A stretch of DNA of 64,000 nucleotides, taken from assembly GCA_045545295.1 (NCBI GenBank), contig JAZQAO010000054.1, forward strand, positions 20,826 to 84,825. Direction: 5' to 3'. Shown here one piece after another: positions 4,520 through 57,649 of this stretch. Position numbers and translations under genes: made by a program. Source of the stretch: Clostridia bacterium (GTDB lineage: Bacteria; Bacillota; Clostridia; UMGS1883). Under the pieces are notes generated by a model, which was not told the origin of the DNA, did not search any database, and saw only the letters and a list, made by a program, of their open reading frames with translations. Position 1 is the first letter of the stretch. Each line of letters starts with the position of its first letter.

Positions 4520-4544
4520 AAACTATTCCTCCAAATTAATTACT

Positions 4545-4728: not shown

Positions 4729-4837
4729 AAATAAAAACAGAAAACGGAAAACAGAATGAAAAGGTAGCTAAATGCTCTTAAAACCGATGTTTTGTTTTTG
4801 CGATTTTGTACCTCCAAATTCCGTTTTCCGTTTATTT

Positions 4838-7800
4838 TCAATTAATAAGTTCTGCCGTAACAGAAGCTATTTTCACATCTGTAAAACCGCTGATTGTAAA
4901 ATCAGTCTTTAAGCGTTCCATATTGTCAAGGCACGCCCCCGTAAGATTAAGGGTAACTGTTTTAAGCTCACCTGTTCCCGTACGGGTTATTTTTTCAGTA
5001 TTCTTAACAAGGCGGTTTCTTGTTTCACCTATTTCAAAGGTGTAATAGGTGAAGTTGAAATCAGTTGTTCCCTCGTCAAGATAAGTAATTGTAACCTTTA
5101 CATTTCCCTCGGTCTGATATGCGACTTCATTCTTGACATTTACACGCATAACGTTTCCTTTGGGAAGCTTATAAAGAGCCTGTCCATTATGAGTAATTAC
5201 TTCAACTTCACTGTCGCAGTCCGCATAGCTGAAGCTGTCGCAGCTACCTGAAAGGTCATACCAACCGCCGTCGGGAGCATTTGCAATAATGTCCGAAACA
5301 TCTGCCCAGCCGATTCTTATAATCTTACCTGTTTCGTCATAGTGACCAAACCACACCTTTGTACCGTCAAGATTAAATGCAGGATGGCAGTGTCCCGGAT
5401 TAATACCTGTCTGCTTTACTCTTGCAACAACATGGCTTACACCTGTGTAACAGTCAATAAGCACTATATCTGAATATTCACCGTTACTGTAACCCGTATC
5501 CGCTACTGCCCAGCGGTTACTTACGGGACTTGTTGCAACGTGGTTATATGCATAGTCACTGTTTATGTAATTACGTTCTGTCCCGTCATATTTAATGGAA
5601 ACAATACCTGGATAGCCGATTGCGGAGCTACCCGAAGATTTATGGAACACTATATGCTCACCGTCGTGTGTCCACATCTCATGGCAAGCAATTTCACCTG
5701 CAGATTTCGCAGAATAAAATCTTGGAACAAATACATTATAGTATTCGTCAGTATCTGTATTAAGCACCCACAATCTGTCATTTACGGAAGTACCTTCGTG
5801 ACAGAAAAGAAGAAGATTCGGCTTTACGGGGTTAATTGAAACATGGTTTGGATCATACCACTCTGTATCGAATACGTAGCTATGAGTAAGATCCCACTCC
5901 CCTGTTTCAATATCAAGTATGGGGAATCTTGAGCCTTCGGCAAGCTTCTTGTCCGACCACTCAACAGAAAGCTTTTCCTCCGTATCCATTACCTGAAGCA
6001 TACCTGCAGCATCTGCATATTCTTCCGGGATGACACCGACTACCTTTTTCTCATAAGTGTCAATATCCATTCTTATTATTTCACTGTCGCGGTTAATATA
6101 GAAAAGTCCGTTAAGTGGCGTTGTCACTATATTATGCTCTCTCTCACAATGGTCGATATACTTTACACTGCTTGTTGTTAAATTGTATTCATAAATCCTG
6201 AAATCGTCGTCACGGACAAAGAATTTATTTCCGTCCGCTGACCATCCCTGCATTGTAAAGTAGCTTCTTATCATATTTTTGCCGTTGAAATCTACCCAGT
6301 TATAGGATCTTCCCGAAACAGGGCAAGTCATTTCCCCTGATATTACTTCACGGTTAAGCTCATTCTTAAAGTAAAGCTGTTCTTGGTATGGATATGCAAT
6401 ATTCTTATCAAGTAAAAATACTTTAACAACCGAGTTTTCAGGATTTTCAGAAAGCTTGAAATCTTCAAATATAAGCTCTTCTGCGGTTGAGCTGTCTGTA
6501 TCAAGGTCAATGGACTTAAGACTGATATTTGTCAGTTCAGAATTCTGATATTCACATACTGCAACGCTGACTTTTTTAGCTTCCTCTGTCTGATTGTAAA
6601 GGCGGACATTCACATCAATAGTTCCGTCAAGTACCTCTTCAATAGCACCGACAGTCCTGCCGTCTGATGAGAATGTACTGTTTGAAACAACATCACCTGC
6701 CACTGTATATGCGGCAAAGTTATCAAAAGAAAGCTGACCTGACTGTGTTCTGAAGTTTGTGAAACGAATATCCTCAACGTTATAAAGTGCCTGGTCTTTT
6801 CTTGTAGTACATTCATAAAGGCCTATTGGAGTTTCGTTAATCTTCACACCATTAATAAAGTAGTCTGCCGTCTGGGTTGCTGTATTAATCTCAATTCTGA
6901 GAGTGAACCATTCATCAAGTATAGGTGCAGTTTCCATAAGATAAACGCTTCTTACTGTACCGGCATTGTCCTGACGTCTTGTGAACATAAATTCACGGTA
7001 ACCCTCGTAATAAAAACAGCAGTCAACTATCTGTGCCCTTTCTTTTGTGCCGTCAGGCAGAAGATAGTTTCCGTACATATGGAAGAAGTAATACTGTGGC
7101 GTATCAGAGTGATTAAATTTCAGGTCCGTTTCGAAAGCCACTTTGTACTGTGACGTTGTGGGGAATTTGTACTGAACAAATTTCTGTGACCCGCTTGTCC
7201 CTTCACGCCATGTATGCATAAAGTAGTTTTTGTTTTTATCAACTTCCAACGCTGTTTTGTAGGGGGCGTCACTGTACGTTGTTATTCCCATTTCAGATTC
7301 TGTAATCTGATGTATTCCCTTCCCTATGCTTTCGGGATAGTAAAATGAATCGGAATAATATACCGCTTTACCTTTAGAAAGAACTCTGTACTCAAGTTCT
7401 TTGTCTATAAGAATATTTTTTCCGTTTTGCATAATTGATGCGGTAATTTTAACAGTGGTATCTTCAAGGGGACGCTTTACAATACCCACTCCTTTTTCAC
7501 TGTTTACATCAATAACGGAAGGATTACTGCTTTCAAATGTGATTTCTACATCTGAAAAATCAATGCCGGAAAGCTTTGTGTAATCAAGGTCAAGATTTTT
7601 TGTTATGTGTTTTACAGACTCTGCCGTAAATACTTCCGGGGTAATAAGCTTTGCAATGTTTGATATTTTACTGTATTCATCACTACAAAGAACAGTGTAG
7701 CTTAACTCCTTTGTAACAGACGCACCGTTCTTTGAAATAGTTGCAGTAACAGTTACTGGCGTATCGTACTTCCCTCTTGTAACTGTGCCGTCACCGGAAA

Positions 7801-22520: not shown

Positions 22521-22642
22521 ATATCCGGGGATAAAAAAATGCTTCAGAATGGACAAACTAAGCTATTGCAAATTCGAAATGTGAAGTTCGAAATTCGAAA
22601 TGATGGATGATTTTCTCTGAATAGAAAATCCTTTTATTAAAA

Positions 22643-22673
22643 TGAAGATTTTTGCTTCAGCAAAAATTCACCT
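22643..22673. terminator. Weak hairpin between convergent genes, inside a larger imperfect inverted-repeat region (22565..22710)
   Basis: tttttgcTTCAgcaaaaa palindrome seen directly; flanked by TTCGAAAT-type repeat arms. Confidence 0.35.
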
Positions 22674-22757
22674 TCACTTCGCACTTCGCACTCCGAATTT
22701 CGCATTTAAAAAGTTACCTTTTTGCTTTCTGGACTTTTTTACATCTCCTTTATAGCT

Positions 22758-24791: not shown

Positions 24792-25742
24792 TTATAACAG
24801 TTTGCTCCATTTATTTTTCGCACTTGAAGCCGCCTGAATTGCCGCAAAAATGCGGAATTTATTTCTTTCTGTTGTACTGCGTCCGGTAACAATAAGAAGT
24901 CCCTGTGCTTTATCCTGAACGGCATTTTCAAGAGTAAATCTTAAATTATGTTCAAGGTTAAAGGTTGAATCTATGGAGCCGGCAGGAATAATATCGTATC
25001 CTGCCTCGGTAAGTTTTCTGTAGCTTTCACGCTTTTTTATATCGTAAGGGTCATCGGGAAGCGGTGCCGAAACATCCGGGAACATATGACCGAAATACCA
25101 CGGACTTACCACAACATCCTTTCCGATGTTTTTTTCAAAAGTTTCAAAGTCTTTCCAAAAAGCATCCGCCCACATCCATGGTCTTACCCCTTTATCTCTT
25201 ACGCACTGAAGCATAAACTTAACATCGTGAAGCAGTAGTTCGTGCTGTCGGTAGCACGCATAGGTGAGGTTACGCTGACTGTCCTCCCCTTCTTCATTCA
25301 TACCGATGTGGAAAAGTTCGGGAGTTTCAAATATATCGCACACCTCATAAATAAGGTCTTTAACTACTTCATAATAATCAGGGGTGGAAAGCATTCTGCC
25401 GTAAATACCGAGCCAAGCATCGTGTGCCGCGGAAAAATTCAGTTTCGGATAGACCTTGAAGCCCATAGAACGAAGACGTCTTACTTCCTCCGTCATATAT
25501 TCAGGAGTCCATCCCCCTTCAATCCACAGTTCGGGATGGGATTTATAGCAAATTGCATCACCGATATTTATAACAAGAGCTTCTACGCCATTTTCCTTTG
25601 CAAAGTCCACAACCTGATCCCAGGCTGCCTTCTCGGTAATTATTCTTGTATTGAACACATTACCTGCATAATCGGCACGGGTGGTTGAATCTATGCCGAA
25701 ATTATCTCCAAGAGAGAGCATTAAATAGAGTGTGTCTTTCAT
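24792..25742 (-). CDS. TIM-barrel-like putative carbohydrate-active hydrolase, paralog 4 (divergent C-terminus)
   Basis: Start at internal Met (MKDTLYLMLSLGDNFGIDS), aligned to paralog N-termini; GGGAGG RBS at 25752-25757; motifs YKSHPE, NFSAAHDAWLGIYGRMLST. Confidence 0.8.
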   Translation of the reverse strand: MKDTLYLMLSLGDNFGIDSTTRADYAGNVFNTRIITEKAAWDQVVDFAKENGVEALVINIGDAICYKSHPELWIEGGWTPEYMTEEVRRLRSMGFKVYPKLNFSAAHDAWLGIYGRMLSTPDYYEVVKDLIYEVCDIFETPELFHIGMNEEGEDSQRNLTYACYRQHELLLHDVKFMLQCVRDKGVRPWMWADAFWKDFETFEKNIGKDVVVSPWYFGHMFPDVSAPLPDDPYDIKKRESYRKLTEAGYDIIPAGSIDSTFNLEHNLRFTLENAVQDKAQGLLIVTGRSTTERNKFRIFAAIQAASSAKNKWSKLL

Positions 25743-25743
25743 A

Positions 25744-26706
25744 TTATTTACCTCCCAAAAGCTTTTCCCTTGCGTACTTTGCCTGGTATATGGCATCCAT
25801 ATACCAATACTTGCTGTCATCCATAGGCGCCGCCCAGCTTCCGCAGATAATCATACCGCGAATTTTGTCCTGATTAAGGTTTTCAAGAGCGTAGCGGATT
25901 GTATGCTCAAAATTATGAGTGTTTACATTTGCTCCGCCCTGAAGCATAATATCAAATCCGTTTTCAGTGAGAAGCTTGAAGCTTTTGTAGCGGTTTGTGC
26001 TCCATTCGTCAGTCGGAAGTGGATTTTGTGCATCACCGTAAAAACTGCCGTAAAGCCAGTTACACACAAGGACATCCTTTTTGACATTCTTTATAAACTC
26101 TTTGGGATATGACCAGCAATAGTCACCGCCAATGGCAGGTCTTACGCCTTTTTCTCGGATGCAGTTACACAGGTATTCCACATCGTGCCACACAAGATCA
26201 AACTGACGATAGCAGGCAAAATCGTACCGCTGCTGATTTGTCCAGTTTTCCTCATCAAGGACAAGTGAAAAGAATTCGGGGGTGTCAAAAATGTCGCAAA
26301 CTTCGTGAATAAGCTCCCTCGCCACCTCATAATATCGTTGTGTTGAAACCATTCTGGAATATTCCTCAAGCCACGCATCGTGACCTGCAGAAAAGTTAAG
26401 TCGGGGATACAGTTTTATCCCCTTTTCGTCACGAAGACGCTTTACCTCTGACCGCATAAATTCAGGTGTCCACGCCCCCTCAACGGCAATTTCGGGGTGG
26501 GAATCAAACCTTATACCGTTTGCAATATCAAGAAGAATACTGTCGCAGCCGTTTTCAGCCGCACAATCAACTATTTCGTTCCATGCCTTTACATCTGCCC
26601 TCAGTTTTTTATAATAAATCTCTCCCTGACAGTCAGGTCTTGTGGGAGAATCGTTCCAGCAGTTGTCCGCAAGACAAACAAGCAAACACCATTTTTCAGC
26701 AATCAT
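25744..26706 (-). CDS. TIM-barrel-like putative carbohydrate-active hydrolase, paralog 5
   Basis: Start at Met 26706 (MIAEKWCLLVCLADNCWNDS) with GGAGG RBS; the ORF-track 370-aa extension lacks RBS and family support. Confidence 0.8.
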   Translation of the reverse strand: MIAEKWCLLVCLADNCWNDSPTRPDCQGEIYYKKLRADVKAWNEIVDCAAENGCDSILLDIANGIRFDSHPEIAVEGAWTPEFMRSEVKRLRDEKGIKLYPRLNFSAGHDAWLEEYSRMVSTQRYYEVARELIHEVCDIFDTPEFFSLVLDEENWTNQQRYDFACYRQFDLVWHDVEYLCNCIREKGVRPAIGGDYCWSYPKEFIKNVKKDVLVCNWLYGSFYGDAQNPLPTDEWSTNRYKSFKLLTENGFDIMLQGGANVNTHNFEHTIRYALENLNQDKIRGMIICGSWAAPMDDSKYWYMDAIYQAKYAREKLLGGK

Positions 26707-26830
26707 AGCTTTTCCTCCATAAAAAGATTGAAAAATTTCTTTTATAATCATTTTACCACGATAAATTTTCCTTGTAAATTGCAAAAATAAGAAAAGCACA
26801 TTGCAAAAAGTCCACTGAATTCTATCTCTA

Positions 26831-26923
26831 AAAAAGAAGCGTGCCGCTTCACCCACGTCGCACCCTCACAGGAGTGCAAACAAAGTTTCCTGCGTCATAA
26901 TTTGACGCAAATTCCTATACGGT
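26831..26923 (+). repeat. Single copy of the modular interspersed repeat (core subtype C)
   Basis: aaaaaagaagcgtgccgcttcacccacgtcgca...ttgacgcaaattcctatacggt. Confidence 0.85.
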
Positions 26924-26971
26924 AAAAAAAATTGTACATTTTGGGGACTGTCCCCAAAATGTACAATTTTT
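26924..26971. terminator. 48-bp perfect palindrome (24-bp stem) flanked by A/T runs: bidirectional intrinsic terminator at the spoVT stop
   Basis: aaaaaaaattgtacattttggggac t gtccccaaaatgtacaatttttttt read directly. Confidence 0.8.
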
Positions 26972-27517
26972 TTATTCTTCCATGTGCTTTCCCAAAAATC
27001 CTGCCGCACTCTGGCAAAGCTTTTTTTCAACTTCACCCACAGGCATAGACTCTCTTTCTGACACCATCATTACAGAGCCTATTGAATCGCCTTCGCTTAT
27101 AATGGGGGCAATTACGCCTGCAAAATACTTTTCAGAGCCTTTTACTACCGGGAGTCCTTCCCCTCCCGTTGAATCAATAACAAAGATATTTTTCTTTTCC
27201 ATTGTTTTTTCAACATCTTCGCTGATTCTCTTTTCAACAAGTTCCTTTTTAGGCGCTCCCGAAACAGCAATTACACTGTCCTTATCAGTGATAACAACGG
27301 CTAAACCGCTTGTTTTGGAAAGAGTTTCTGCATAACCTGCAGCAAACTCACCAAGCTCTCCAATCGGTGAGTATTTTTTGAAGATTACTTCCCCATCGCG
27401 CTCCGTGAATATCTCAAGTGGATCGCCCTCGCGGATGCGGAGAACACGACGGATTTCTTTGGGTATAACTACACGACCTAGGTCGTCTATTCTTCTTACA
27501 ATTCCTGTTGCTTTCAT
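26972..27517 (-). CDS. spoVT: Stage V sporulation protein T (AbrB-type N-domain + GAF-like C-domain)
   Basis: MKATGIVRRIDDLGRVVIPKEIRRVLRIREGDPLEIF swapped-hairpin AbrB motif; ~181 aa like B. subtilis SpoVT; AGGAG RBS. Confidence 0.8.
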   Translation of the reverse strand: MKATGIVRRIDDLGRVVIPKEIRRVLRIREGDPLEIFTERDGEVIFKKYSPIGELGEFAAGYAETLSKTSGLAVVITDKDSVIAVSGAPKKELVEKRISEDVEKTMEKKNIFVIDSTGGEGLPVVKGSEKYFAGVIAPIISEGDSIGSVMMVSERESMPVGEVEKKLCQSAAGFLGKHMEE

Positions 27518-34736: not shown

Positions 34737-34920
34737 AAAATCCCCTCTTCTTTCGTAGTTGCTTATGTGTGAATTTACTGTATCATTTTCATCGACGACT
34801 GCCTTTTTTATTTTAACACTTTTTTCAAAAATTGTCAATTAAAAACAGTGCTTATTATGCTTATTCAATTTTTCCTTTTTTAAATTTCTATTTTACTTTT
34901 TCCGCTTACTGTGTTACAAT

Positions 34921-35108
34921 AAAAAAGAAGCGTGCCGCTTCACCCACGTCGCGTCCAAACTTAACTTAAAACCCACAAATATTGCTCGCGATAAAAAACG
35001 CAATTTCCTATACGATAAAAAAGAAGCTTGCCGCTTCACCCATGTCGCGCACCTGCAAATGTCGAACATAGCTTCACGCGAATAAAATTACGCAAATTCC
35101 TATAAGGT
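34921..35108 (+). repeat. Two tandem copies of the modular interspersed repeat (core subtypes A and D)
   Basis: Direct sequence identity of left and right modules with other loci. Confidence 0.85.
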
Positions 35109-38384: not shown

Positions 38385-38476
38385 AAAAAAGAAGCGTGCC
38401 GCTTCACCCATGTCGCGCACCTGCAAATGTCGAACATAGCTTCACGCGAATAAAATTACGCAATTTCCTATACGGT
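38385..38476 (+). repeat. Single copy of the modular interspersed repeat (core subtype D)
   Basis: Identical core to the second copy at 35017..35108. Confidence 0.85.
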
Positions 38477-38511
38477 AAAAAAAGGTTGATGCGATGCATC
38501 AACCTTTTTTG
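38477..38511 (-). terminator. Intrinsic terminator overlapping the stop codon of the GRE activase gene
   Basis: aaaaaaaggttgatgc gat gcatcaacctttttt; 9-bp stem plus T6. Confidence 0.7.
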
Positions 38512-42377: not shown

Positions 42378-43160
42378 ATGAATAATAACTTTATCATAAC
42401 AGAAATCGGCAGAGCCATACTTGTGGGTAAAGATGAATATCCTGCCGCGAAAGTAACCTTCGGCGGAAAATTGAAATATAACGAACTTATATATCATTTA
42501 AGCGGAAAATCAACAGTTCATTTCGATGGAAAAATTCTTGAAACAGAGGAAGATACGATTCGCTTTTTGCCCAAAGGAGAAAATGGAGAATATATTGTTG
42601 AAAAAAAAGCAGCGGGAGAGTGTATAGATGTATTTTTCGATACTGATATTCCCGTGTCGGAAGAAGCTTTTGTAGTGAAAGTCGCCCAAAGTGCAACTGT
42701 TTCAAGCTTGTTCAAAAAACTTTTTTCAGTATGGGTTGCTAAAAACGATGGCTATTATTATGAATGTATATCACTGCTTTACAGAATTCTTGCCGAAATG
42801 CAAAAGCAAAACTACATTCCACCCAATCAGTACGACACAATAAAACCTGCGATTGAGTATATAATGGAAAATTTCCTTAAAAGCAAAATTTCAGTTCCTT
42901 TTTTAGCTGAAAAATGTGGTATAAGTGAGGCGTACCTTAAAAAATTGTTTGTCAAAAAGTTCGGAATGTCACCCCTTCGGTATATTATTCGATTGAAAAT
43001 AAATCACGCCTGCGATCTTCTGCATTCAAATCAGTATTCAGTAACGCAGGTTGCAGAGCTTTGCGGATATGACAATGTATATTTTTTCAGCCGCCAGTTT
43101 AAAGAATATGTCGGTATCACCCCCACAGAGTTTGTTGAAAAATATAAGTCTTCAAAATAA
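42378..43160 (+). CDS. AraC-family transcriptional regulator, divergent from the GRE operon
   Basis: C-terminal AraC HTH (NQYSVTQVAELCGYDNVYFFSRQFKEYVGITPTEF). Confidence 0.8.
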   Translation: MNNNFIITEIGRAILVGKDEYPAAKVTFGGKLKYNELIYHLSGKSTVHFDGKILETEEDTIRFLPKGENGEYIVEKKAAGECIDVFFDTDIPVSEEAFVVKVAQSATVSSLFKKLFSVWVAKNDGYYYECISLLYRILAEMQKQNYIPPNQYDTIKPAIEYIMENFLKSKISVPFLAEKCGISEAYLKKLFVKKFGMSPLRYIIRLKINHACDLLHSNQYSVTQVAELCGYDNVYFFSRQFKEYVGITPTEFVEKYKSSK

Positions 43161-43248
43161 AAAGCCCGCCGCTTCACCCATGTCGCACCCTCGCAGGAGT
43201 GCAAACAAAGTTTCCTGCGTCATAATTTGACGCAAATTACTATACAGA
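43159..43248 (+). repeat. Degenerate copy of the modular interspersed repeat (core subtype C), then hairpin terminator 43253..43276
   Basis: aaaaagcccgccgcttcacccatgtcgcaccctcgcaggagtgcaaacaaagtttcctgcgtcataatttgacgcaaattactatacag. Confidence 0.7.
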
Positions 43249-43275
43249 AACAAAAAAACGGCTAAAGCCGTTTTT

Positions 43276-43950
43276 TCACTTACAAAGGTTTATAAAATTT
43301 TCAAAAAACCTGTTTTCAATGGGATTTCCTTCTACAAAGCTTTTTTCAGGATGCCACTGAGTTGCAAAGATGCGTTTTTCTTTCCATTCAACAGCTTCAA
43401 TAACACCGTCATCTGATACTGCAACAGTTCTGAGTCCGGGTGCAAGCTTATCTATTGCCCAATAGTGATATGAATTGACCTCTGCAAAGTCCGAATTAAA
43501 CACATCGTAAACAAAGGAATTCTTTTCTATGCTTATTTTATGGTTTCTTGACATGGGATTACTGTGTATACTTTCATCAATCTCTTTCAGGTTTCCACCT
43601 AAATACACGTTTATCGCCTGAAGTCCGCCACAGATTCCTAGTATTGGTTTGTTGTTTTTTACAAACCAATCAATTAATTTTGCATCCAGAGAATATTCAT
43701 CATAGGCTTGTTCTTCACGAAATGGCTCTCCTCCCCAGTATGATGGGTTGATATTCGTACTGCTTCCCGGAACTATAAGTCCGTCACATTTTTCACAGAT
43801 TTCAGTGAAGCCGTATTCTGTCATGATACAATTCATCCCTACCTTATATTTTTCAGCCATAAGCTCCCAGAAACAAGGTATAGAAAAACGCTCATCCCAA
43901 CCATCGCCACGTCCCATATTGACATATCTTAAAACAGTTGCAAAATTCAT
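43276..43950 (-). CDS. Peptidase C26 / class-I glutamine amidotransferase-like gamma-glutamyl hydrolase
   Basis: GICGGLQAINVYLGGNL (nucleophile Cys) and ATQWHPE motifs; AAGGTGA RBS. Confidence 0.75.
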   Translation of the reverse strand: MNFATVLRYVNMGRGDGWDERFSIPCFWELMAEKYKVGMNCIMTEYGFTEICEKCDGLIVPGSSTNINPSYWGGEPFREEQAYDEYSLDAKLIDWFVKNNKPILGICGGLQAINVYLGGNLKEIDESIHSNPMSRNHKISIEKNSFVYDVFNSDFAEVNSYHYWAIDKLAPGLRTVAVSDDGVIEAVEWKEKRIFATQWHPEKSFVEGNPIENRFFENFINLCK

Positions 43951-43966
43951 AAATTCACCTTGCCTA

Positions 43967-46438
43967 TTATAATACTTTATATCCCTGTGCTTCTACAGCA
44001 CTTTTTAATACTTCAACTGTTACGCTGTCGTCGTGTTTTACAATTGCAGTACCTTTTTCGTGGCTGGGTATCGCCTCTGAAACACCTGATATTCCTTCAA
44101 GTGTCTGCTTTACTCTTGCCTCACAGTGAGGGCACATCATACCTTCAATTTTAAGTGTTGTTTCCATTGTTTCTGTCTCCTTTTCTTTATATGTTTTAAA
44201 TAAATTTAATCTTAACGCATTTGATATAACACAGACACTGGAAAGACTCATTGCCGCAGCACCGAACATAGGATTTAACGTCCAGCCTGTTATATTAATC
44301 CACACACCGGCAGCAAGGGGAATTCCCACTACATTATAGAAAAATGCCCAGAAAAGATTTTCGTGAATATTTTTTAGGGTTTTACGGCTTAGTCTGATTG
44401 CCTCAACTACTCCCATAAGGCTCTTTCCTGTAAGAACAATGTCAGCTGATTCCACTGCCACATCTGTTCCTTTTCCTATTGCAACACCTACGTCAGCACG
44501 GGTAAGTGCGGGAGCATCGTTGATACCGTCACCCACCATCATTACTTGACCTTTTTCCTGAAGTTTGCGGATTACCTCTTCTTTTCCGTCGGGTAACACA
44601 TCAGAAATAACGTTCGTGATACCAAGTTCTGATGCAATTGCCGTGGCGGTATTTTTGTTGTCACCGGTAAGCATAACAACCTCTAACCCTAGACCTGTAA
44701 GGATTTTTACTGTATCCTTGCTGTCATCTTTAACCGTATCTGCTATGGCTATAATGCCTGCAATTTCTTTTTCTTTTACAAATATAACCGGGGTTTTCCC
44801 CTGACGTGCAAGCCTATTAAGATTTTCACGGATAGCGTCATTTACAAAAGTAAGCTCTTCAACCATTTTCAGATTTCCACCACAGATGTTTTCTCCAAAG
44901 ACACTGCCCTTTACTCCGTTTCCCGGAAGAGATGTAAAGGAGTCTGCCTTTATCGACTCAATCCCTTTTTCTGAGCAATAAAGGTTAATTGCCTTTGCAA
45001 GCGGATGCTCGCTCTGAATTTCAAGAGCGTAAGCAATCTTAAGAACATCGTCTTTTGAAAAGTTGCCAAAGGAAATCACATCTGTAACCTTTGGCTCACC
45101 TTTTGTAAGGGTGCCTGTTTTATCAAGGGCTACAAACTTTACTTTTCCTGCGTTTTCCAGAACTTCGGAAGTTTTGTAAAGTATTCCATGTTTAGCCCCT
45201 ACACCACTGCCTACCATTATGGCAACCGGTGTTGCAAGACCTAACGCACAAGGGCAACTGATTACAAGCACTGAAATTCCCCTAGCCAGTGAAAATCCAA
45301 AGCTCTTTCCCAAAATGAGCCATATAAGCATACTCACAAGAGCAATAATTATGACAGTCGGAACAAAAATGCCCGAAACCTTATCTGCAATTTTTGCAAC
45401 AGGTGCTTTTGTTGATGCCGCATCACTTACCATTTTAATTATTTTTGAAATAGTTGTGTCTTCCCCAACACTTATGGCACGGCATCTGAGATAACCTGAC
45501 TGATTGATTGTTGCAGCCGAGACCTTGTCTCCGGAAGTTTTATCCACTGGCATACTTTCTCCGGTAAGTGCCGTTTCATTAACTGCACTGCTACCTTCAA
45601 TTACTATGCCGTCTGCCGGAATGCTTGCTCCCGGTTTTACGACGAAAATATCATCAACAACAACATCCCTTGAATCTACTGTAATTTCTTTTCCGTCACG
45701 GATAATTGTTGCAGTTTTCGGAGAAAGCTCCATAAGACTTTTTATGGCATTTGTGGTTTTTCCCTTTGAATATGCCTCAAGCAGCTTTCCAACTGTGATA
45801 AGAGTAACAATCATTGCAGCTGATTCAAAATAAAGCTCATGCATATACTTATGTGCAACGTGAATATCTCCGTTTATATATGCACTGCACATCACAAAAA
45901 GAGCATATACACTGTAACAAAAGGATGCAAGCGACCCAAGCGATACAAGCACATCCATATTCGGAGCACGGTGAATTGCACTTTTAAATCCGCTTATGAA
46001 AAACTTTTGATTTATTACCATAATTATGCCTGAAAGAAGCAGCTGCGCAATACCTACGGCAAGGGGATTATCCTTGAAAACACCGAAATAAGGCAAACCA
46101 AAGAGCATATTCCCCATTGAAAAATACATCAGCACCACTAAGAGCGCGACAGAGAATATGAGCCTGTATTTCATAGCAGTAATTTCTCCTTTTTCGCTTA
46201 AGTCACTGCCTTGTGTTTCCTTCTTTTCTCCTGCTACTGATGCTTTGTAACCAGCATTTTCTACTGCACTGATAATACTCTGATGCGATGCAGTTCCCTC
46301 TGTTATCATAGTATTTGTAAGAAGATTTACACTGCAGCTTGTAACACCGTTAACTTCTGATACTGCTTTTTCCACGCGGGCACTGCACGCAGCACAGGAC
46401 ATACCTGTAACTATATACTTATTCATAATCTGTTTCAC
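43967..46438 (-). CDS. copA: Copper-translocating P1B-type ATPase with N- and C-terminal HMA domains; GTG start
   Basis: GMSCAACSARVEKAV and GMMCPHCEARVKQTL HMA motifs; CPC in SCPCALGLATP; DKTGTLT; GDGINDAPAL. Confidence 0.9.
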   Translation of the reverse strand: MKQIMNKYIVTGMSCAACSARVEKAVSEVNGVTSCSVNLLTNTMITEGTASHQSIISAVENAGYKASVAGEKKETQGSDLSEKGEITAMKYRLIFSVALLVVLMYFSMGNMLFGLPYFGVFKDNPLAVGIAQLLLSGIIMVINQKFFISGFKSAIHRAPNMDVLVSLGSLASFCYSVYALFVMCSAYINGDIHVAHKYMHELYFESAAMIVTLITVGKLLEAYSKGKTTNAIKSLMELSPKTATIIRDGKEITVDSRDVVVDDIFVVKPGASIPADGIVIEGSSAVNETALTGESMPVDKTSGDKVSAATINQSGYLRCRAISVGEDTTISKIIKMVSDAASTKAPVAKIADKVSGIFVPTVIIIALVSMLIWLILGKSFGFSLARGISVLVISCPCALGLATPVAIMVGSGVGAKHGILYKTSEVLENAGKVKFVALDKTGTLTKGEPKVTDVISFGNFSKDDVLKIAYALEIQSEHPLAKAINLYCSEKGIESIKADSFTSLPGNGVKGSVFGENICGGNLKMVEELTFVNDAIRENLNRLARQGKTPVIFVKEKEIAGIIAIADTVKDDSKDTVKILTGLGLEVVMLTGDNKNTATAIASELGITNVISDVLPDGKEEVIRKLQEKGQVMMVGDGINDAPALTRADVGVAIGKGTDVAVESADIVLTGKSLMGVVEAIRLSRKTLKNIHENLFWAFFYNVVGIPLAAGVWINITGWTLNPMFGAAAMSLSSVCVISNALRLNLFKTYKEKETETMETTLKIEGMMCPHCEARVKQTLEGISGVSEAIPSHEKGTAIVKHDDSVTVEVLKSAVEAQGYKVL

Positions 46439-46722
46439 CTCATAAGTTTTTTCAGTATATCGAGCAGTTCATCAACTGTTGATTCTTTACCGTCTTTTAT
46501 ATCTTTTTCAACACAGGTTTTTATATGATTGGAAAGAATTTCCCGATTCAAGGCATCCAGCGCAGCATTTGCCGCAGTTATCTGCGTTATAACATCGGTG
46601 CAGTAAGCATCCTCATCAATCATCCTGCCAATTCCTCTTATTTGCCCCTCAATACGCTTTATTCTGTTTAAAAGCAGCTTTTTTTCGTTATCAGTTCTTT
46701 CTTTTTTTCTGCAGCAATCCAT
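46435..46722 (-). CDS. csoR: CsoR-family copper-sensing transcriptional repressor
   Basis: LLNRIKRIEGQIRGIGRMIDEDAYCTDVITQITAANAALDAL matches CsoR/DUF156; 4-bp overlap with copA. Confidence 0.8.
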   Translation of the reverse strand: MDCCRKKERTDNEKKLLLNRIKRIEGQIRGIGRMIDEDAYCTDVITQITAANAALDALNREILSNHIKTCVEKDIKDGKESTVDELLDILKKLMR

Positions 46723-46751
46723 ACCCTCACCTCACAGCTATTATATACCCC

Positions 46752-46772
46752 CTAGGGGTATATTGTCAACAA
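46752..46772. promoter_or_regulatory. Candidate CsoR operator: perfect palindrome TATATACCCCTAGGGGTATAT upstream of csoR-copA
   Basis: Read directly; resembles TACCC-N-GGGTA type CsoR operators. Confidence 0.55.
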
Positions 46773-46890
46773 AAAATTAGTACTTACACAACTTTTATCT
46801 TAAGAAATCTTATTTTAACGTAATTAAGGGAGATATAAAGAAATCGAATTTCTTTATATCCCCTTTAATTCAATCTTCTGATATATTTTT

Positions 46891-47075
46891 TAATTTAGAG
46901 GAATTTGCGTAAATTAGTACGCGTGAAACTGTGTTTGCACTTTGTACGTGCGTGACGTGGGTGAAGCGGCACGCTTCTTTTTTAATTTATAGGAATTTGC
47001 GTAAATTAGTACGCGTGAAACTGTGTTTGTACTTTGTACGTGCGCGACGTGGGTGAAGCGGCACGCTTCTTTTTT
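46891..47075 (-). repeat. Two tandem copies of the modular interspersed repeat in reverse orientation (core subtype B), abutting the stop of the transglycosylase gene
   Basis: ...gacgtgggtgaagcggcacgcttctttttt repeated twice. Confidence 0.85.
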
Positions 47076-47769
47076 ATTGCTGACTCAAAATATCAGAAGC
47101 CTCTTCTTCGGAAAGTTTTCCATTTTCCACCATAGCCTCAACAACAGTCTTTTGCCTTTGTTTTGCAAGATCGGGGTTGTTATCAAGAGAATATACTGAC
47201 GGCGCATTTGGAATCCCTGCAAGAAGTGTTGCTTCATAATCGCTCATATCAGCAGGCTCTTTCCCGAAATAGCCCACGGAAGCATCCCGGATTCTGTAAT
47301 ATCCGCTTCCGTAGTATATATTATTAAAATAAAGTTCCAATATTTCATCCTTTGAAAACTTTGCTTCAAGCTTAAAGGCAACAAACGACTCTGCTACTTT
47401 TCTTGTAAGAGAATCATCATTTATGAAATAAATATTTTTCGCAAGCTGCTGTGTTATTGTACTGCCACCTTCTGCAAAAGTTTTCTTTTCAAAATTTGAC
47501 TTAAATGCTCTTATTATGCCCTTTATATCTATCCCCTTATGCTCATAAAAACGCCTGTCCTCAACGCAGACCATAGCATCCTTAAAAGTTGGATTGATAT
47601 CGGAAATCTTTGTATAGGAGCTGTAAGTTTGGATTTTCTTTACAGCATCGTCAAGTGACAACTGACTTATTGCCTGTTTGTACTTTCCGTAACCTGCGGC
47701 AACTACTCCGACGATAATCAAAAGTGCCAGTGTTAATATAGTCGATATTATTCTTTTTATAAATTTCAT
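47074..47769 (-). CDS. Monofunctional peptidoglycan glycosyltransferase (GT51, MtgA-like) with N-terminal TM anchor
   Basis: EDRRFYEHKGID and GGSTITQQLAKN GT51 motifs. Confidence 0.8.
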   Translation of the reverse strand: MKFIKRIISTILTLALLIIVGVVAAGYGKYKQAISQLSLDDAVKKIQTYSSYTKISDINPTFKDAMVCVEDRRFYEHKGIDIKGIIRAFKSNFEKKTFAEGGSTITQQLAKNIYFINDDSLTRKVAESFVAFKLEAKFSKDEILELYFNNIYYGSGYYRIRDASVGYFGKEPADMSDYEATLLAGIPNAPSVYSLDNNPDLAKQRQKTVVEAMVENGKLSEEEASDILSQQ

Positions 47770-49985: not shown

Positions 49986-51342
49986 GATTGACAACGTAGA
50001 AGTTAATCTTGAAAACGGTCACAAATATGCCCGCACAGATATTAAAATCGGAGAAAACATCATAAAGTACGGTCAGCCTATCGGTCACGCTACTGAGGAT
50101 ATAAAAAAAGGCGAGCATGTGCACACACATAATATGAAAACAAACCTCTCCGGGGAGCTTGAGTATACTTACGAGCCGGGAGAGGTTATGCGGGATAAAA
50201 TCGAAACTGACAGAACCTTTATGGGGTACAGACGAAAAAACGGCTCTGTCGGAATCAGAAACGATGTGTGGATTATTCCTACTGTTGGCTGTGTAAACAG
50301 CCAGGCTAAGGTAATTGCCGAAAAGACAGGAGCTAAGGCATTTACACATCCTTTCGGTTGCTCACAGCTGGGTGATGACCAGACAGTTACTCAGCTTATT
50401 CTCCGTGGACTTGTAAACCACCCCAATGCCGGAGGAATACTTGTTCTTGGACTTGGTTGCGAAAACAATCATATTGATTTGTTCAAGTCTGTTCTCGGCA
50501 CTTGGGATGACGAGCACGTTAAATTTCTCAACGCTCAGGACACAACAGACGAGATTGAAGAAGGTATAAAAATTGTAAAGGCACTTCAGAAAAGAGCCGC
50601 AGGTTTCACACGTGAACCTATACATATAAGCGAGCTTAAGATAGGTCTTAAATGCGGTGGAAGCGATGGTTACAGCGGTATAACTGCAAACCCTCTTGTC
50701 GGAAGACTTTCTGACTACCTTATTTCTATGGGTGGCAGTTGTGTACTGACGGAAGTACCTGAAATGTTTGGTGCGGAGCATCTTTTGATGAAACGTTGCA
50801 GGAACAGAGAGATTTTTGATAAAACAGTTGAACTCATCAATAATTTCAAAAAATACTTTATCCGCCACAATCAGGTTGTATATGAAAATCCCTCTCCGGG
50901 TAATAAAGCCGGTGGAATTACAACTCTTGAGGAAAAATCCCTCGGATGTGTGCAAAAAGGTGGTCTTGGCGAGGTTGTAGATGTACTTGACTACGGTGAT
51001 GTACTTAAAGAAAGCGGTCTCTCGCTCCTTAACGGTCCCGGTAATGACATCGTTGCAGTAACAAATCTTACTGCATGCGGAGTTCACATGATTCTCTTCA
51101 CAACAGGCAGAGGAACTCCACTTGGTGCACCTGTTCCTACAATTAAGATTGCTACAAACAAGGCTTTGGCAAAAAGAAAGCCCGGCTGGATTGATTTTGA
51201 TGCAAGCGGTCTCCTTGACGGTGAGGAGCTTACAGAAGCATTGCTTGACTACTGCATAGATATTGCCGAAGGAAAGCAAGCTAAAAACGAAATTAACAAG
51301 TGTGAGGAAATCTCTATTTTCAAAGATGGAGTTATGTTATAA
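49972..51342 (+). CDS. uxaA: Altronate dehydratase
   Basis: SAF N-domain (MLINKIDNVEVNL) plus GD_AH C-domain; overlaps uxaB by 14 nt. Confidence 0.8.
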   Translation: MLINKIDNVEVNLENGHKYARTDIKIGENIIKYGQPIGHATEDIKKGEHVHTHNMKTNLSGELEYTYEPGEVMRDKIETDRTFMGYRRKNGSVGIRNDVWIIPTVGCVNSQAKVIAEKTGAKAFTHPFGCSQLGDDQTVTQLILRGLVNHPNAGGILVLGLGCENNHIDLFKSVLGTWDDEHVKFLNAQDTTDEIEEGIKIVKALQKRAAGFTREPIHISELKIGLKCGGSDGYSGITANPLVGRLSDYLISMGGSCVLTEVPEMFGAEHLLMKRCRNREIFDKTVELINNFKKYFIRHNQVVYENPSPGNKAGGITTLEEKSLGCVQKGGLGEVVDVLDYGDVLKESGLSLLNGPGNDIVAVTNLTACGVHMILFTTGRGTPLGAPVPTIKIATNKALAKRKPGWIDFDASGLLDGEELTEALLDYCIDIAEGKQAKNEINKCEEISIFKDGVML

Positions 51343-51387
51343 TCAAATGTTTCCTACGTCTTAATTTTACTCAATTTTCCGTAATAC

Positions 51388-51575
51388 AAAAAAGAAGCGT
51401 GCCGCTTCACCCATGTCGCACCCTCGCAGGAGTGCAAACAAAGTTTCCTGCGTCATAATTTGACGCAAATTCCTATACGGTAAAAAAGAAGCGTGCCGCT
51501 TCACCCATGTCGCACCATCACAGAAGTACATACACGGTTTCCTGCGACATAATTTTGCGCAAATTCCTATACGGC
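51388..51575 (+). repeat. Two tandem copies of the modular interspersed repeat (core subtypes C and E)
   Basis: Direct comparison; subtype E carries compensatory stem atgtcgca/tgcgacat. Confidence 0.85.
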
Positions 51576-51617
51576 AAAAAAGAAAGTCGCATCACAAATG
51601 ATGCGACTTTCTTTTTT
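51576..51617. terminator. Bidirectional intrinsic terminator between uxaA (+) and the aldolase operon (-)
   Basis: aaaaaagaaagtcgcatcacaaatgatgcgactttcttttttg; 14-bp stem, A6/T6 flanks. Confidence 0.8.
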
Positions 51618-51626
51618 GTGTTTAAA

Positions 51627-52574
51627 TTATTTCTTAAGGTATTTTGCAATCTCTTCTGTAACAAGCTTTGTAACAAGATCAATGTTATCCTGTGACATTG
51701 AGAAGTTCTTGTTAATATCAGCTTTGCCTGTGCTGCTGAAGAGCTCAAGCTTCTTTGTTGTTTCAAGCTTAACAGCTTCAACTGCTGCAGGAATAAGGTC
51801 GATAATACCTTTGTCCATACTGTGGAACTTTCTGAATTCCGCCTCAACTGCAGCAACGTTAATATCTGTGAAAATGTTAACCTTGCTGATACCCTCAGCA
51901 ATTGCCTGCTTGAAATCGTTATCTGTAAGACCTGATCCACCATGAAGAACAAGGGGAACATCTACAGTATTTGCGATTGTGCGGATTCTTTCAAAGTCAA
52001 GTTTTGGGGGCAATTTGTAAGCACCATGTGCGTTACCAACTGCGATTGCAAGTGCATCAACACCTGTCTTGTCTACGAAATCCTTTGCAAGCTTAGGATC
52101 TGTAAAGAAAGCAGAAGGATCTGCAAGGTGATCGCTACCCTCAGCTGAACCCTCATTATCACCAACGTGACCAAGCTCACCCTCGATTGTTGCACCGTAA
52201 GAATGTGCAATATCTGCCATTTCCTTAACTTTTCTCACGTTTTCTTCGTAGCTGTCTGTTGAACAGTCATACATAACTGATGAGAAACCAAGCTTAAGAG
52301 CTTTGATACAAGTATCATAAGTAAGACCATGGTCAAGATGTACAACTACGGGAACAGATGCCTTCTTAGCCATAGGAATGAGGTAGTAAGAAACTTCCTC
52401 AAGAGGACCGTAAGGCAAAAGTACCTCTGCAGTACCCATAATAACCGGTGAACGTGTGCTTTCTGCAGCTGCAATGATACCGCGTGCAAGTTCAAGGTTT
52501 ACTGCATTAAACAGACCAACAGCATATTTATTAGCTTTTGCCGGTCTGAGAACTTCGTTCATATTAACTAACAT
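51627..52574 (-). CDS. Class II fructose/ketose-bisphosphate aldolase family protein
   Basis: KYAVGLFNAVNLE, PVVVHLDHG, LVLHGGSG motifs aligned with class II FBA. Confidence 0.8.
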   Translation of the reverse strand: MLVNMNEVLRPAKANKYAVGLFNAVNLELARGIIAAAESTRSPVIMGTAEVLLPYGPLEEVSYYLIPMAKKASVPVVVHLDHGLTYDTCIKALKLGFSSVMYDCSTDSYEENVRKVKEMADIAHSYGATIEGELGHVGDNEGSAEGSDHLADPSAFFTDPKLAKDFVDKTGVDALAIAVGNAHGAYKLPPKLDFERIRTIANTVDVPLVLHGGSGLTDNDFKQAIAEGISKVNIFTDINVAAVEAEFRKFHSMDKGIIDLIPAAVEAVKLETTKKLELFSSTGKADINKNFSMSQDNIDLVTKLVTEEIAKYLKK

Positions 52575-55539: not shown

Positions 55540-55552
55540 ATGTAAAAACAGA

Positions 55553-55775
55553 TTTGGTAGAGGTGCGGAATCTATCAGTACGATATGCAACTCGGGACAT
55601 TCCTGCATATCTGAAAGGAGCTTCCGCCGAAGTTTTGGGAGGCAATGTCCGTTTCCCGGGCTGGGCTGCAGTACAACATATTGCAGACTGTCACGTAAGT
55701 GGAGCGCTATCGTATATTTATGGCACTTTTTGTGTCTTTTTGCGGTACAGGCTCTGCCTGTACCATTTTTGTTTA
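55553..55775 (+). promoter_or_regulatory. Lysine riboswitch (L-box) with terminator-type expression platform
   Basis: GGTAGAGGTGCGG, CTGAAAGGAGCTTCCGCCGAAG, ACTGTCA, GGAGCGCTATCG segments match conserved L-box elements (as in B. subtilis lysC leader); terminator ggtacagg-ctctg-cctgtacc + atttttgttt at 55745-55775. Confidence 0.65.
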
Positions 55776-55795: not shown

Positions 55796-57418
55796 ATGAA
55801 ATTTTTAAACAAAAAGAACATTCTCTCCTTCTTCACATTTATCCTTATTCTTGCAACAGCAATCATTGCTTTTGCAGAAGGTGAAGAAGCAGAACACGTA
55901 AGCAAATTTGCTTCAACATTCTGGGCACTTGTTCCCCCGGTTGTAGCAATCGTGCTTGCGCTCATCACTAAAGAAGTGTACTCTTCCCTTTTTGTAGGTA
56001 TTCTTTCAGGCGCACTTCTTTTCGCAAACTTTGATCTGGAGATTGCAATGAACCACATGCTCGTGGATGGATTCATTGCATCACTTTCCGACAGCTGGAA
56101 CGTAGGTATCCTTGTATTTCTCGTTATCCTCGGTGCTATCGTTGCTCTTATGAATAAGGCAGGCGGCAGCGCAGCGTTCGGAAGATGGGCTTCCACAAGA
56201 ATCAAGACAAAGTTTGGTGCACAGTGCGCAACAATCGCACTTGGCGTACTTATCTTCATCGACGACTACTTCAACTGTCTCACAGTTGGTTCGGTAATGC
56301 GTCCTGTTACAGACAAGTTCAAGATTTCAAGAGCAAAGCTTGCTTACCTTATTGATGCTACAGCAGCTCCTGTTTGTATCATCGCTCCCATTTCTTCATG
56401 GGCTGCAGCAGTTGCAGGTTTTGCAGAGGGTTCAGGAATGAACGGTCTTGAGCTTTTCATCAGAGCTATCCCCTATAACTTCTACGCTCTTCTCACAATT
56501 GTAATGATGTTTACTCTTGCGATTATGAAGTTTGAGTTTGGCCCCATGAAAAAGCATGAAGCTAACGCTGAAAACGGTGACCTCTTCTCTTCAGATGATG
56601 CAGAAGTTTTCAAGGCTCTTGAAAATAATAACCCCGATTCCAAGGGCAAGGTTATTGATCTTGTTCTCCCTGTTATTGTACTTATCATCACTTGCGTAAT
56701 CGGTATGATTTACACAGGCGGTTTCTTCAGCGGTGAAAGCTTTGTTGACGCTTTTGCAAACAGCGACGCTTCCGTTGGTCTTGTAATCGGTTCTTCAATC
56801 GCACTTGTATTCACAATTATTTATATGTTCGCTCGCAGAGTGCTTACGTTTAAAGAATGTATGGGCTGCGTTCCAGAAGGTTTCAAAGCTATGGTACCTG
56901 CAATAATGATTCTTACATTTGCATGGACTCTTAAGGCTATGACAGACTCTCTCGGTGCTGCAGATTACATTGCAGGTCTTGTTCAGGGTTCTGCTGAAGG
57001 TTTTGTTAACTTCCTTCCCGCAATTGTATTCCTTGTTGCTTGCGTACTTGCATTTGCATCAGGTACTTCATGGGGTACATTCGGTATCCTTATTCCCATT
57101 GTTGTAGCAGCATTTGGTGGCTTCAGCAGCGAAATCACAATCATTGCAGTTTCTGCTTGTATGGCAGGTGCAGTTTGCGGCGACCACTGCTCACCCATTT
57201 CAGACACAACAATTATGGCATCTGCGGGAAGCCAGTCAAACCATATTAACCACGTTAACACACAGCTTCCCTATGCTATATTGGTTGCTGCAATTTCTTT
57301 TGTATGTTATCTTATCGCAGCGTTTATACAGAATCCGTTCATTCTTCTTCCCATCGGCATTGTTATTACAATAGTAACACTTTTTGTAATAAAGAAGATA
57401 ACAACAAAGAACGCGTAA
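55796..57418 (+). CDS. NhaC-family transporter, probably a lysine transporter given the L-box leader
   Basis: 540 aa, ~12 TM; NhaC-family architecture; AGGAGGG RBS. Confidence 0.8.
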   Translation: MKFLNKKNILSFFTFILILATAIIAFAEGEEAEHVSKFASTFWALVPPVVAIVLALITKEVYSSLFVGILSGALLFANFDLEIAMNHMLVDGFIASLSDSWNVGILVFLVILGAIVALMNKAGGSAAFGRWASTRIKTKFGAQCATIALGVLIFIDDYFNCLTVGSVMRPVTDKFKISRAKLAYLIDATAAPVCIIAPISSWAAAVAGFAEGSGMNGLELFIRAIPYNFYALLTIVMMFTLAIMKFEFGPMKKHEANAENGDLFSSDDAEVFKALENNNPDSKGKVIDLVLPVIVLIITCVIGMIYTGGFFSGESFVDAFANSDASVGLVIGSSIALVFTIIYMFARRVLTFKECMGCVPEGFKAMVPAIMILTFAWTLKAMTDSLGAADYIAGLVQGSAEGFVNFLPAIVFLVACVLAFASGTSWGTFGILIPIVVAAFGGFSSEITIIAVSACMAGAVCGDHCSPISDTTIMASAGSQSNHINHVNTQLPYAILVAAISFVCYLIAAFIQNPFILLPIGIVITIVTLFVIKKITTKNA

Positions 57419-57425
57419 ATTCAAA

Positions 57426-57459
57426 CAAAAAACTCCCGTAGAAAGCGGGAGTTTTTTTT
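57426..57459 (+). terminator. Intrinsic terminator after the NhaC-family gene
   Basis: aaaaaactcccgtagaaagcgggagtttttttt. Confidence 0.8.
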
Positions 57460-57649
57460 ACCGTATAGGAATTTGCGCAAAATTATGTCGCAGGAAACCG
57501 TGTATGCACTTCTGTGATGGTGCGACATGGGTGAAGCGGCACGCTTCCTTTTTAATTTATAGAAAATTGCGTTTTTTATCGCGAGCAATATTTGTGGGTT
57601 TTAAGTTAAGTTTGGACGCGACGTGGGTGAAGCGGCACGCTTCTTTTTT
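57460..57649 (-). repeat. Two tandem copies of the modular interspersed repeat, reverse orientation (core subtypes E and A)
   Basis: accgtataggaatttgcgcaaaattatgtcgcaggaaaccgtgtatgcacttctgtgatggtgcgacatgggtgaagcggcacgcttcc... and second copy. Confidence 0.85.

Follow-up and report, generated by a model that had tools for sequence, protein, structure and literature searches.

The described element that most resembles the repeat reported here is SPRITE of Streptococcus pneumoniae, which we take as its closest analogue in functional class, a likeness drawn by description and not by homology. SPRITE is a ~105-nt repeat resembling a Rho-independent terminator, with a stem (an 18-bp duplex), a long U-rich tail, A/T-run termini and 28% GC; it is enriched near gene 3' ends and between convergent genes, its partner IS is not known and a target duplication is not established, and in the view of its authors it is parasitic, and either tolerated or co-opted as a terminator (PMC3049150). 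The segment at 51388-51575 of the DNA studied here (a stretch of 64,000 nt, analysed whole and called the window) belongs to a family that is likewise a ~100-nt non-coding Firmicute repeat with a stem, a U-rich tail, A/T-run termini and a position near gene 3' ends. Unlike SPRITE, its unit has a 6-bp stem, a T6 tail and 44% GC, and the family shows a variable core of two kinds, arrays of unlike subtypes, an exact junction with T-runs and empty sites.

A second point of reference is the bcr1 (group A) repeats of the Bacillus cereus group, which are ~155 bp long, intergenic and not conserved in distribution between related strains; they are transcribed with neighbouring genes, compensatory changes keep their stem-loops, and they form a mobile class without its own transposase, flanked by 5-bp direct repeats and able to adopt a cruciform-like double stem-loop (Delihas 2011, PMC3184786). 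The present family shares with them a Firmicute host, a non-conserved distribution and compensatory stem changes, but only a short closing stem and a terminal hairpin are conserved in it, its end is terminator-like, and any duplication is indistinguishable from the T-run.

Other mobile or repetitive elements offer more partial parallels. REP/BIME elements of proteobacteria are G+C-rich, imperfect palindromes of 20-40 nt whose tag is GTAG or CGTC; they mostly come in inverted pairs and are linked to a RAYT gene. They are extragenic, lie after genes, are often clustered, and have been proposed to act in termination or mRNA stabilisation. The present repeat is also extragenic, post-gene, hairpin-forming and clustered, but its unit of 94 nt is non-palindromic overall and arranged head-to-tail, without GTAG at the foot of the hairpin and without a RAYT-like gene in the window. 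PATEs derived from IS200/IS605, like other elements mobilised by HUH enzymes, lack terminal inverted repeats; they carry subterminal hairpins recognised by TnpA, and elements of the IS200/IS605 type insert in one orientation, 3' of a fixed short target, with no obvious duplication. A 3' hairpin that is kept in shape and an insertion strictly 3' of oligo-T recall this behaviour, as a mechanistic analogy only; the 5' end of our unit, however, has no matching hairpin, the target would be oligo-T rather than a defined tetra- or pentanucleotide, and we found no TnpA in the window and no full-length partner among the loci examined. Class C (IIC) group II introns insert directly behind the hairpin of an intrinsic terminator, always in one orientation, and group II introns are several hundred nucleotides or longer, with ribozyme domains and usually a reverse transcriptase gene. 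In contrast, the present unit is short, has neither ribozyme domains nor a reverse transcriptase, has no Rfam intron match, and does not require a hairpin at its target.

The repeat is short, non-coding, multicopy and polymorphic for presence and absence, as a classical MITE would be, but has no terminal inverted repeats. Because it failed the classical MITE, REP/RAYT and Rfam tests, we file it among the terminator-like interspersed repeats. Compared by description, it departs from SPRITE and bcr1 in sequence, in its short hairpin, in having two core families, in its mixed arrays and in the exact junction with pre-existing T-runs.

Results

Repeat units and their census

The segment 51388-51575 consists of two head-to-tail repeat units of 94 nt each (51388-51481 and 51482-51575); across the family, unit length ranges from 92 to 96 nt. 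On the strand that ends in T, which is the - strand for this pair, a unit opens with the conserved ACCGTATAGGAATTTGCG, passes through a variable core of ~45 nt between the conserved ends and closes with GACRTGGGTGAAGCGGCACGCTTC followed by T6, so that each unit of the pair ends in GGGTGAAGCGGCACGCTTC-TTTTTT. This conserved 3' end is a 6-bp hairpin with a GCA loop plus T6, and of the 13 window copies 12 have all of its elements, namely a 6-bp stem containing G+C, a loop of 3 nt and T6. Conservation also extends to the non-stem bases GACRTGGGT, which a hairpin would not call for. At the 5' end there is only a weak A+T hairpin around GCG, unlike the 3' hairpin, and terminal inverted repeats are absent, the 5' end ACCGTATAGG... 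showing no complementarity to the 3' end ...GGCACGCTTCTTTTTT.

A search with the 19-nt core of the conserved end, GAAGCGKGCCGCTTCACCC, allowing up to 3 mismatches, found 13 copies across eight intergenic loci of the 64-kb window, as three solos and five two-unit arrays, against an expectation of 0 (no match in 100 shuffles). An nhmmer search with an HMM built from the copies recovered the identical 13 in the window and no degenerate extras; the count of 13 given in the first-pass annotation is thus confirmed by both searches. Together the copies occupy 1,219 of the 64,000 nt, about 1.9%.

Two core families can be distinguished. Family I has the form CGCR-TGAAAC...GCAC...-YGCG and takes in the subtypes named C, D and E in the first-pass annotation, and family II has the form TCGCG-AGCAA...TTTGG-ACGCGA. 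There are six subtypes, each with two or three copies that are 96-98% identical and lie at unlinked loci.

Short open reading frames within the units were considered and rejected, since both the ATG and the frame vary between subtypes. In a search of the window against Rfam 15, no family matched the units at or near its gathering score, and in a permissive search of 51300-51650 the matches on the units were noise, the strongest ones falling on the host terminator. The sole Rfam match in the window is a lysine riboswitch at 55550-55717. CRISPR, attC, a tRNA-derived SINE (there are no tRNAs) and a riboswitch or ribozyme (no Rfam match on the units) were all rejected as identities for the repeat.

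Adjacency to T-runs and genomic setting

Units directly follow an oligo-T run and share its strand. Among 18 independent sites, 17 have five or more T within the 6 nt that lead up to the first unit; the background, taken over the intergenic (position, strand) pairs of the window, is 4%. At 14 of the 18 sites a host terminator hairpin adjoins, with a dG of -11 to -29 kcal/mol as against -7.0 kcal/mol for the element's own, weak hairpin.

At the locus from which the analysis started, the subtype E unit (51482-51575, - strand, family I) stands directly after the T-run of the bidirectional intrinsic terminator of the fructose-bisphosphate aldolase (Fba) gene. This terminator (51576-51617; A6, 13-bp stem, T6; dG -25 kcal/mol) belongs to a gene at 51627-52574 on the - strand, and its T-run is the array's insertion point. 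The subtype C unit (51388-51481, - strand, family I) follows, with its 3' hairpin and T6 at 51388-51412. The E unit is 97% identical to the copy at 57460-57553 and the C unit 98% identical to that at 26830-26923.

All three solos follow terminators. The C copy at 26830-26923 (- strand) comes directly after the T8 of the bidirectional spoVT terminator (26924-26973), and a subtype D copy at 38385-38476 (- strand) directly after the T7 of the terminator of a radical-SAM gene (38477-38510). A degenerate C copy with the hairpin GAAGCGGCGGGCTTT at 43155-43249 (- strand) follows a terminator at 43250-43276, and the stop codon of an AraC gene lies inside its A/T-run.

The arrays extend this pattern. 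On the - strand near the start of the window, a D' unit of family I (4641-4732) stands first, after TTCTGTTTTT, and a B1 unit of family II (4545-4640) second, with the start of a GH88 gene (4519) 25 nt downstream. On the + strand, two D' units stand in tandem: the first (46892-46983) follows ATATTTTTT, 22 nt downstream of a hairpin at 46828-46863, and the T-run of the second (46984-47075) overlaps the stop codon of a convergent transglycosylase gene. An E unit (57460-57553, + strand) comes directly after the T8 of the terminator of an NhaC-type antiporter gene (57427-57459, + strand) and is followed by a B2 unit (57554-57649, + strand), a 24-nt spacer and a conserved NAD-kinase promoter, TTGACC-17-TATAAT. 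In six of the eight window loci the unit is co-directional with a gene and behind that gene's own terminator.

The remaining array shows that a hairpin is not required for a site. Its D unit (35017-35108, - strand, family I) adjoins a T-run without a host hairpin, namely the complement of an A6 run, and its second unit is a B2 copy of family II (34921-35016, - strand). An extended -10 promoter, TTTACT-17-TACAAT, is predicted upstream of the array at 34892-34920 (+ strand), and the A6 falls between this predicted promoter and the ribosome-binding site of a PHP gene (35131, + strand). If the promoter prediction is right, the two units (34921-35108) probably lie in the 5' UTR of this gene, antisense to it, in the orientation that has no T's after the hairpin.

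Four arrays combine unlike subtypes, namely E+C, E+B2, D+B2 and D'+B1. In each of the seven window loci with clear bounds, the 5' and the 3' T-run are followed by the same base; this is usually A, and the single G case is the Fba array, whose inner junction has A. T-runs flank both sides of the units and mask any target-site duplication.

The window contains no transposase, reverse transcriptase, recombinase or other candidate mobilising gene, and in particular no Y1-transposase-like, RAYT-like or TnpA gene; the genes on either side have ordinary housekeeping roles and occur in both orientations. Among the loci examined there was no longer element with the same ends, and there were no orphan or long-range pairs of ends. 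Orphan 13-nt 5' ends do occur beside T-runs in the loci L121 and L074.

Copies and empty sites in other assemblies

Eleven further copies were found outside the window: one in L005, two in L019 and one in L074, which are Clostridia metagenome-assembled genomes (MAGs), one in each of the metagenome contigs L114-L119, and a divergent one in L121. A scan of a genome collection with the 17-mer GCCGCTTCACCCAYGTC yielded real copies at three of 113 loci among the matches listed (L005, L019 and L074), the others listed being chance matches in high-G+C genomes, and a metagenome scan with a 25-mer yielded six loci. A viral-contig scan, a plasmid BLAST and a phage BLAST returned no repeat copies. Where the repeat occurs in other assemblies the element is up to 98% identical and the flanks have no similarity to the window; thus the L074 copy is 98% identical to the unit at 34921-35016, and the rest of the L074 locus is unlike the window.

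The opposite pattern is seen in relatives, where a syntenic block of Fba, GFO, aminotransferase, antiporter, NAD kinase, ArgR and RecN genes is present. The terminator site of the antiporter gene was compared with L121, L123 and L134. In L121 and L134 the antiporter gene has the orthologous terminator, CTCCCGC...GCGGGAG-T7, without the repeat, and in L123 a different hairpin with T7 stands at the same position, again without the repeat. In all three, a spacer of 19-23 nt follows the terminator and leads to the conserved NAD-kinase promoter (TTGACC-17-TATAAT), whereas in the window the terminator and its T8 are followed by two units (190 nt), a 24-nt spacer and the same promoter. Because the length of the spacer is unchanged with respect to the relatives, the window's additional DNA consists of the units and nothing else, attached where the T-run ends; the relatives' spacers have diverged, so that the boundaries of the empty site are fixed only to within the T-run. 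In syntenic stretches of 20 kb there are no copies in L120 and L123-L128 and one in L121/L122, as against 13 in the 64-kb window.

Three other comparisons did not yield empty sites. The loci L129-L133, with close Fba homologues on short contigs, were rejected as empty counterparts of the Fba array, since their downstream neighbours differ; L127, in which Fba lies beside an AraC/PFL block, was rejected as a deletion between the direct C copies at 43155 and 51388, the junction sequence being unsupportive; and a homologue search with the PHP gene, made to find a 5' UTR without the repeat, turned up nothing above 67% identity.

Folding and covariation

The first-pass annotation had proposed that the core folds into two stems on the T-ending strand. 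The strings themselves are present: the C copy carries cgcagga/tcctgcg and atgtcgca/tgcgtcat, and the E copy carries cacagaa (ttctgtg on the - strand) and tgcgacat, with a perfect 8-bp outer stem atgtcgca/tgcgacat and an inner stem that has two G.U pairs on the - strand and A.C on the + strand. The two stems, however, share four bases (tgcg) on one side and therefore cannot both form fully. Enforcing either of them costs 4-9 kcal/mol relative to the minimum free energy (MFE; -30.6 kcal/mol for C and -27.9 kcal/mol for E), and neither is present in either MFE structure.

Across 23 copies, RNAalifold returned the terminal hairpin only, which was invariant there and without covariation. For family I alone it returned a G.U-rich fold with double-sided changes at none of 19 pairs, all variation in this predicted fold of the T-ending strand being between G.U and Watson-Crick, and for family II alone a 5-bp closing stem plus the terminal hairpin. 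Consensus energies of the reverse complements were equal or better for all copies pooled and for family II, and in the reverse complements of family I the closing stem replaced the G.U-rich fold.

Covariation was scored on an anchor-based layout of 19 distinct copies, as a MAFFT alignment displaced family II's left arm by some two columns, so that the closing stem looked broken. Across 24 copies, conserved pairing is limited to the terminal hairpin and a closing stem of 4-5 bp, CGCR/YGCG. The closing stem is paired in 18-19 of the 19 distinct sequences, with one pair changed from G-C to A-U (CGCG/CGCG to CGCA/TGCG) in five of the 19. The terminal hairpin is 98% paired in the same set, and in the L121 copy it shows three compensatory pairs, GAAGCG-GCA-CGCTTC becoming GCAGGC-GCA-GCCTGC with the GCA loop kept. 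Both pairings are Watson-Crick (about 15 distinct sequences, with low covariation power) and hence fit either strand, DNA or RNA alike. The hairpin and T-tract that had been described at the 3' end are real and conserved, their shape being kept through compensatory changes. The strand-specific covariation ascribed to the cores is not supported by these copies, as there is no family-wide fold and the real covariation is Watson-Crick and strand-neutral.

The T-ending strand folds about 4-5 kcal/mol better than the opposite one because it is G+T-rich, and shuffles show an equal difference (mean z of the asymmetry +0.54), so that its advantage is an effect of composition. Subtype E alone deviates, with a z of about -1.8 to -1.9 and a fold 10-12 kcal/mol better on the T-ending strand, which leaves some room for RNA- or ssDNA-level selection on that strand. 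Scored against dinucleotide shuffles, whole units average a z of about -0.3 when the T-ending strand is folded and of about -1.7 when its complement is. For the core, what emerges is largely what the first-pass annotation had named as evidence against its own proposal, namely no supported covariation when all copies are aligned and stems of equal quality on both strands.

Terminator-like end and promoters

A terminator scan called the 3' hairpin and T6 terminator-like, and this end is oriented like the host terminators that it follows. Since the hairpin and T-tract are conserved and co-oriented, a terminator-ended RNA segment is plausible wherever a copy is transcribed from upstream. Carried on read-through transcripts, a unit could plausibly serve as a weak back-up terminator or a 3'-UTR structure. 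Efficient termination is argued against by the unit at 4545-4640: the 25 nt that separate it from the GH88 gene downstream contain no detectable promoter.

The -10/-35 elements sought beside the copies were not found: a search of 22 copies for sigma-70-type sites, covering the 50 nt upstream and the first 25 nt of each, gave none, and promoter scans found no outward-facing promoter inside the unit. Genuine promoters nearby are clear and of the type TTGACC/TTGACA-17-TATAAT. Of the features expected of a ~95-nt RNA gene with its own terminator, the terminator-like end is supported; the core structure, the promoter and conservation in synteny are not.

Discussion

The units probably represent a non-autonomous, non-coding interspersed repeat family that targets T-runs and carries a terminator-like end. 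On our best reading, the family has proliferated in a pig-gut-type Clostridia lineage and is not a stand-alone structured-RNA gene. This is supported by presence and absence at orthologous sites, the multicopy spread, the adjacency to T-runs and the lack of promoter-like sites.

We infer that insertion beside oligo-T, mostly at the tails of terminators, is the work of an enzyme acting in trans, and that the unit's own hairpin and T6 recreate the insertion target. If each unit recreates its target in this way, head-to-tail arrays of unlike subtypes would result. The orientation of insertion would be coupled to the strand of the T-run, and since the element's terminator would then point as the T-run already does, insertions might be nearly harmless, being co-directional behind terminators and antisense in a 5' UTR. 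What the enzyme recognises could be the conserved ends together with the hairpin kept in shape, possibly on single-stranded DNA, although the latter is a guess.

A more specific route, which we think quite unlikely, would involve a single-stranded intermediate that recognises oligo-T, either ssDNA handled by an HUH-type enzyme or a terminated, U-tailed transcript copied back at T/A runs, and would yield self-extending terminator arrays. If it were true, insertions that were aborted or truncated would account for the orphan 13-nt 5' ends of L121 and L074, and the family would exemplify a previously undescribed mobility in Firmicutes that targets terminator tails.

It would be tempting to see in the units, as the first-pass annotation did, an independently transcribed structured sRNA of ~95 nt with its own intrinsic terminator, or a derivative of one, whose cores are kept by RNA-level compensation. 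Such an RNA could explain the terminator-like 3' end of all copies, the G-C to A-U change in the closing stem and the compensatory pairs of the terminal hairpin, as well as the G.U pairs of subtype E, confined to the T-ending strand on which that subtype folds 10-12 kcal/mol better, and a T-strand fold of family I that varies only between G.U and Watson-Crick. That same fold, however, has no double-sided changes, no consensus core fold spans both core families, the strand asymmetry is accounted for by composition, the proposed stems are mutually exclusive and suboptimal, and Rfam offers no match. The setting is equally unfavourable, given a promoter-like site in none of 22 copies, a 5' neighbour that is mostly a host terminator, orthologous sites in relatives without copies and two copies antisense inside a probable 5' UTR, and we regard an sRNA gene as very improbable. 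The Watson-Crick, strand-symmetric nature of both conserved pairings might rather suggest a DNA-level site for a chromosomal protein (a nucleoid protein, a site-specific recombinase or an integron-like attC), with the hairpins as cruciforms; the complement of the T-ending strand shows more structure than shuffled versions of it, and conserved ends around a variable centre recall attC in a general way. Yet there is neither an integrase nor a cassette organisation among what are ordinary housekeeping neighbours, no binding partner can be named, and a strict coupling to T-runs with a presence/absence pattern is unexpected of a site for chromosomal architecture, which makes this reading extremely doubtful.

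A module selected by the host in cis is unlikely as well. Under this reading the unit would be a second terminator or 3'-UTR stabiliser, spread and homogenised from T-run to T-run through gene conversion or recombination, and retained as an insulator of neighbouring transcription units; the six of eight window loci that are co-directional behind a gene's own terminator, the hairpin and T6 that pass a terminator scan, and the conserved GACRTGGGT, which could be a site for a protein or an RNase, all point this way. Close relatives, however, lack the element at the same terminators. Its hairpin is weak (-7.0 against -11 to -29 kcal/mol) and usually redundant behind strong bidirectional terminators, and two loci offer no useful termination, one antisense in a 5' UTR and the other antisense after a convergent gene. 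Mixed arrays are also easier to obtain by repeated insertion, which is what the reading as a T-run-targeting repeat supposes.

Taking the units as such interspersed repeats has practical consequences. In annotation they should be masked as interspersed repeats and not entered as sRNA genes, and they are likely to break short-read assemblies of the lineage. The feature worth following is the specificity for oligo-T targets together with the putative enzyme behind it, and the empty and filled sites and the mixed arrays provide a handle for finding an enzyme that recognises T-runs.

More generally, a target in terminator tails combined with a terminator cargo that points the same way would make the family a clean natural example of a near-harmless repeat. 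The copies would put a second, weak terminator behind many genes, and at one locus at least they appear to add a structured leader of 190 nt to a gene.

Strand distribution and gene boundaries

The strand on which the repeat unit ends in a terminator-like hairpin followed by T6 is the minus strand for nine of the 13 units, which is the G-rich strand at window positions 1-48000, as GC skew is negative across that interval. This count fits the way terminators are distributed and provides no evidence for a replication-strand bias; the majority of genes in the first ~34 kb of the window lie on the minus strand.

One repeat unit has its terminator-like end 25 nt upstream of a GH88-domain gene that starts at 4519 on the minus strand and has a good ribosome-binding site. 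No promoter-like site was found throughout 4450-4900, around this start, and the gene must be expressed by transcription that reads through a long hairpin and two units of the repeat (4520-4837). At gene ends, the stop codons of an AraC-family gene (42378-43160; stop at 43158-43160) and of a transglycosylase gene (47074-47769; stop at 47074-47076) both fall inside the A/T-run of a unit, so the insertions either adjoin the ends of coding sequences or alter them.

Partial copies and other repeats

Orphan 5' ends of the element, 13-14 nt long and lying immediately 3' of a T-run with the remainder of the element absent, occur at L121 11081-11093, in a relative's locus syntenic with the window, and at L074 4825-4838, in a locus from another assembly (ACCGTATAGGAAT, AATTTTATAGGAAC). 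Such stubs may derive from insertions that were aborted or truncated, or may be what a deletion left behind. A single bidirectional terminator in L121 is bordered by a full copy and by a 5'-end stub, which point in opposite directions. In L074 (4670-4905), the 94-nt element is flanked by two copies of a different repeat, inverted relative to each other (AAACATCTCTCCCTC ... CTCCCTCGTCAGAGGGAG); the hairpin and T-run 5' of the element are supplied by one of them.

The window and L074 genomes also share a second repeat family, unrelated to the 94-nt element: a long intergenic palindromic A+T-rich stretch at window 22560-22720 is matched at three places in L074 (within 3102-3285 and 5943-6011) with 76-78% identity. 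Furthermore, tandem arrays of ~320-aa genes occupy two places 24 kb apart (1-2430 and 24792-26710), comprising five paralogous gene segments spaced ~958 nt apart with 64-72% identity (repeat families D1, D2, D5 and D9); the one member scanned (25744-26709) had no Pfam match.

Putatively regulated genes and the antiporter terminator

A CsoR-type metal-sensing repressor gene (46435-46780, minus strand; PF02583) has a TTGACA/TATAAT promoter whose spacer is the palindrome ATATACCCCTAGGGGGTATAT, likely an autoregulatory operator. On the plus strand, a lysine riboswitch (55550-55717; Rfam RF00168, 95.9 bits) lies immediately 5' of an NhaC-type Na+/H+ antiporter family gene (55796-57418), which probably encodes a lysine-regulated transporter. 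The hairpin of the orthologous antiporter terminator is split in L120, another relative's syntenic locus, by a ~2.7-kb insert (2531-5219) carrying TnpW-like, NikA-like, HTH and DNA-methylase genes. Because this insert interrupts the hairpin, the antiporter terminator is a landing site for another mobile element too.
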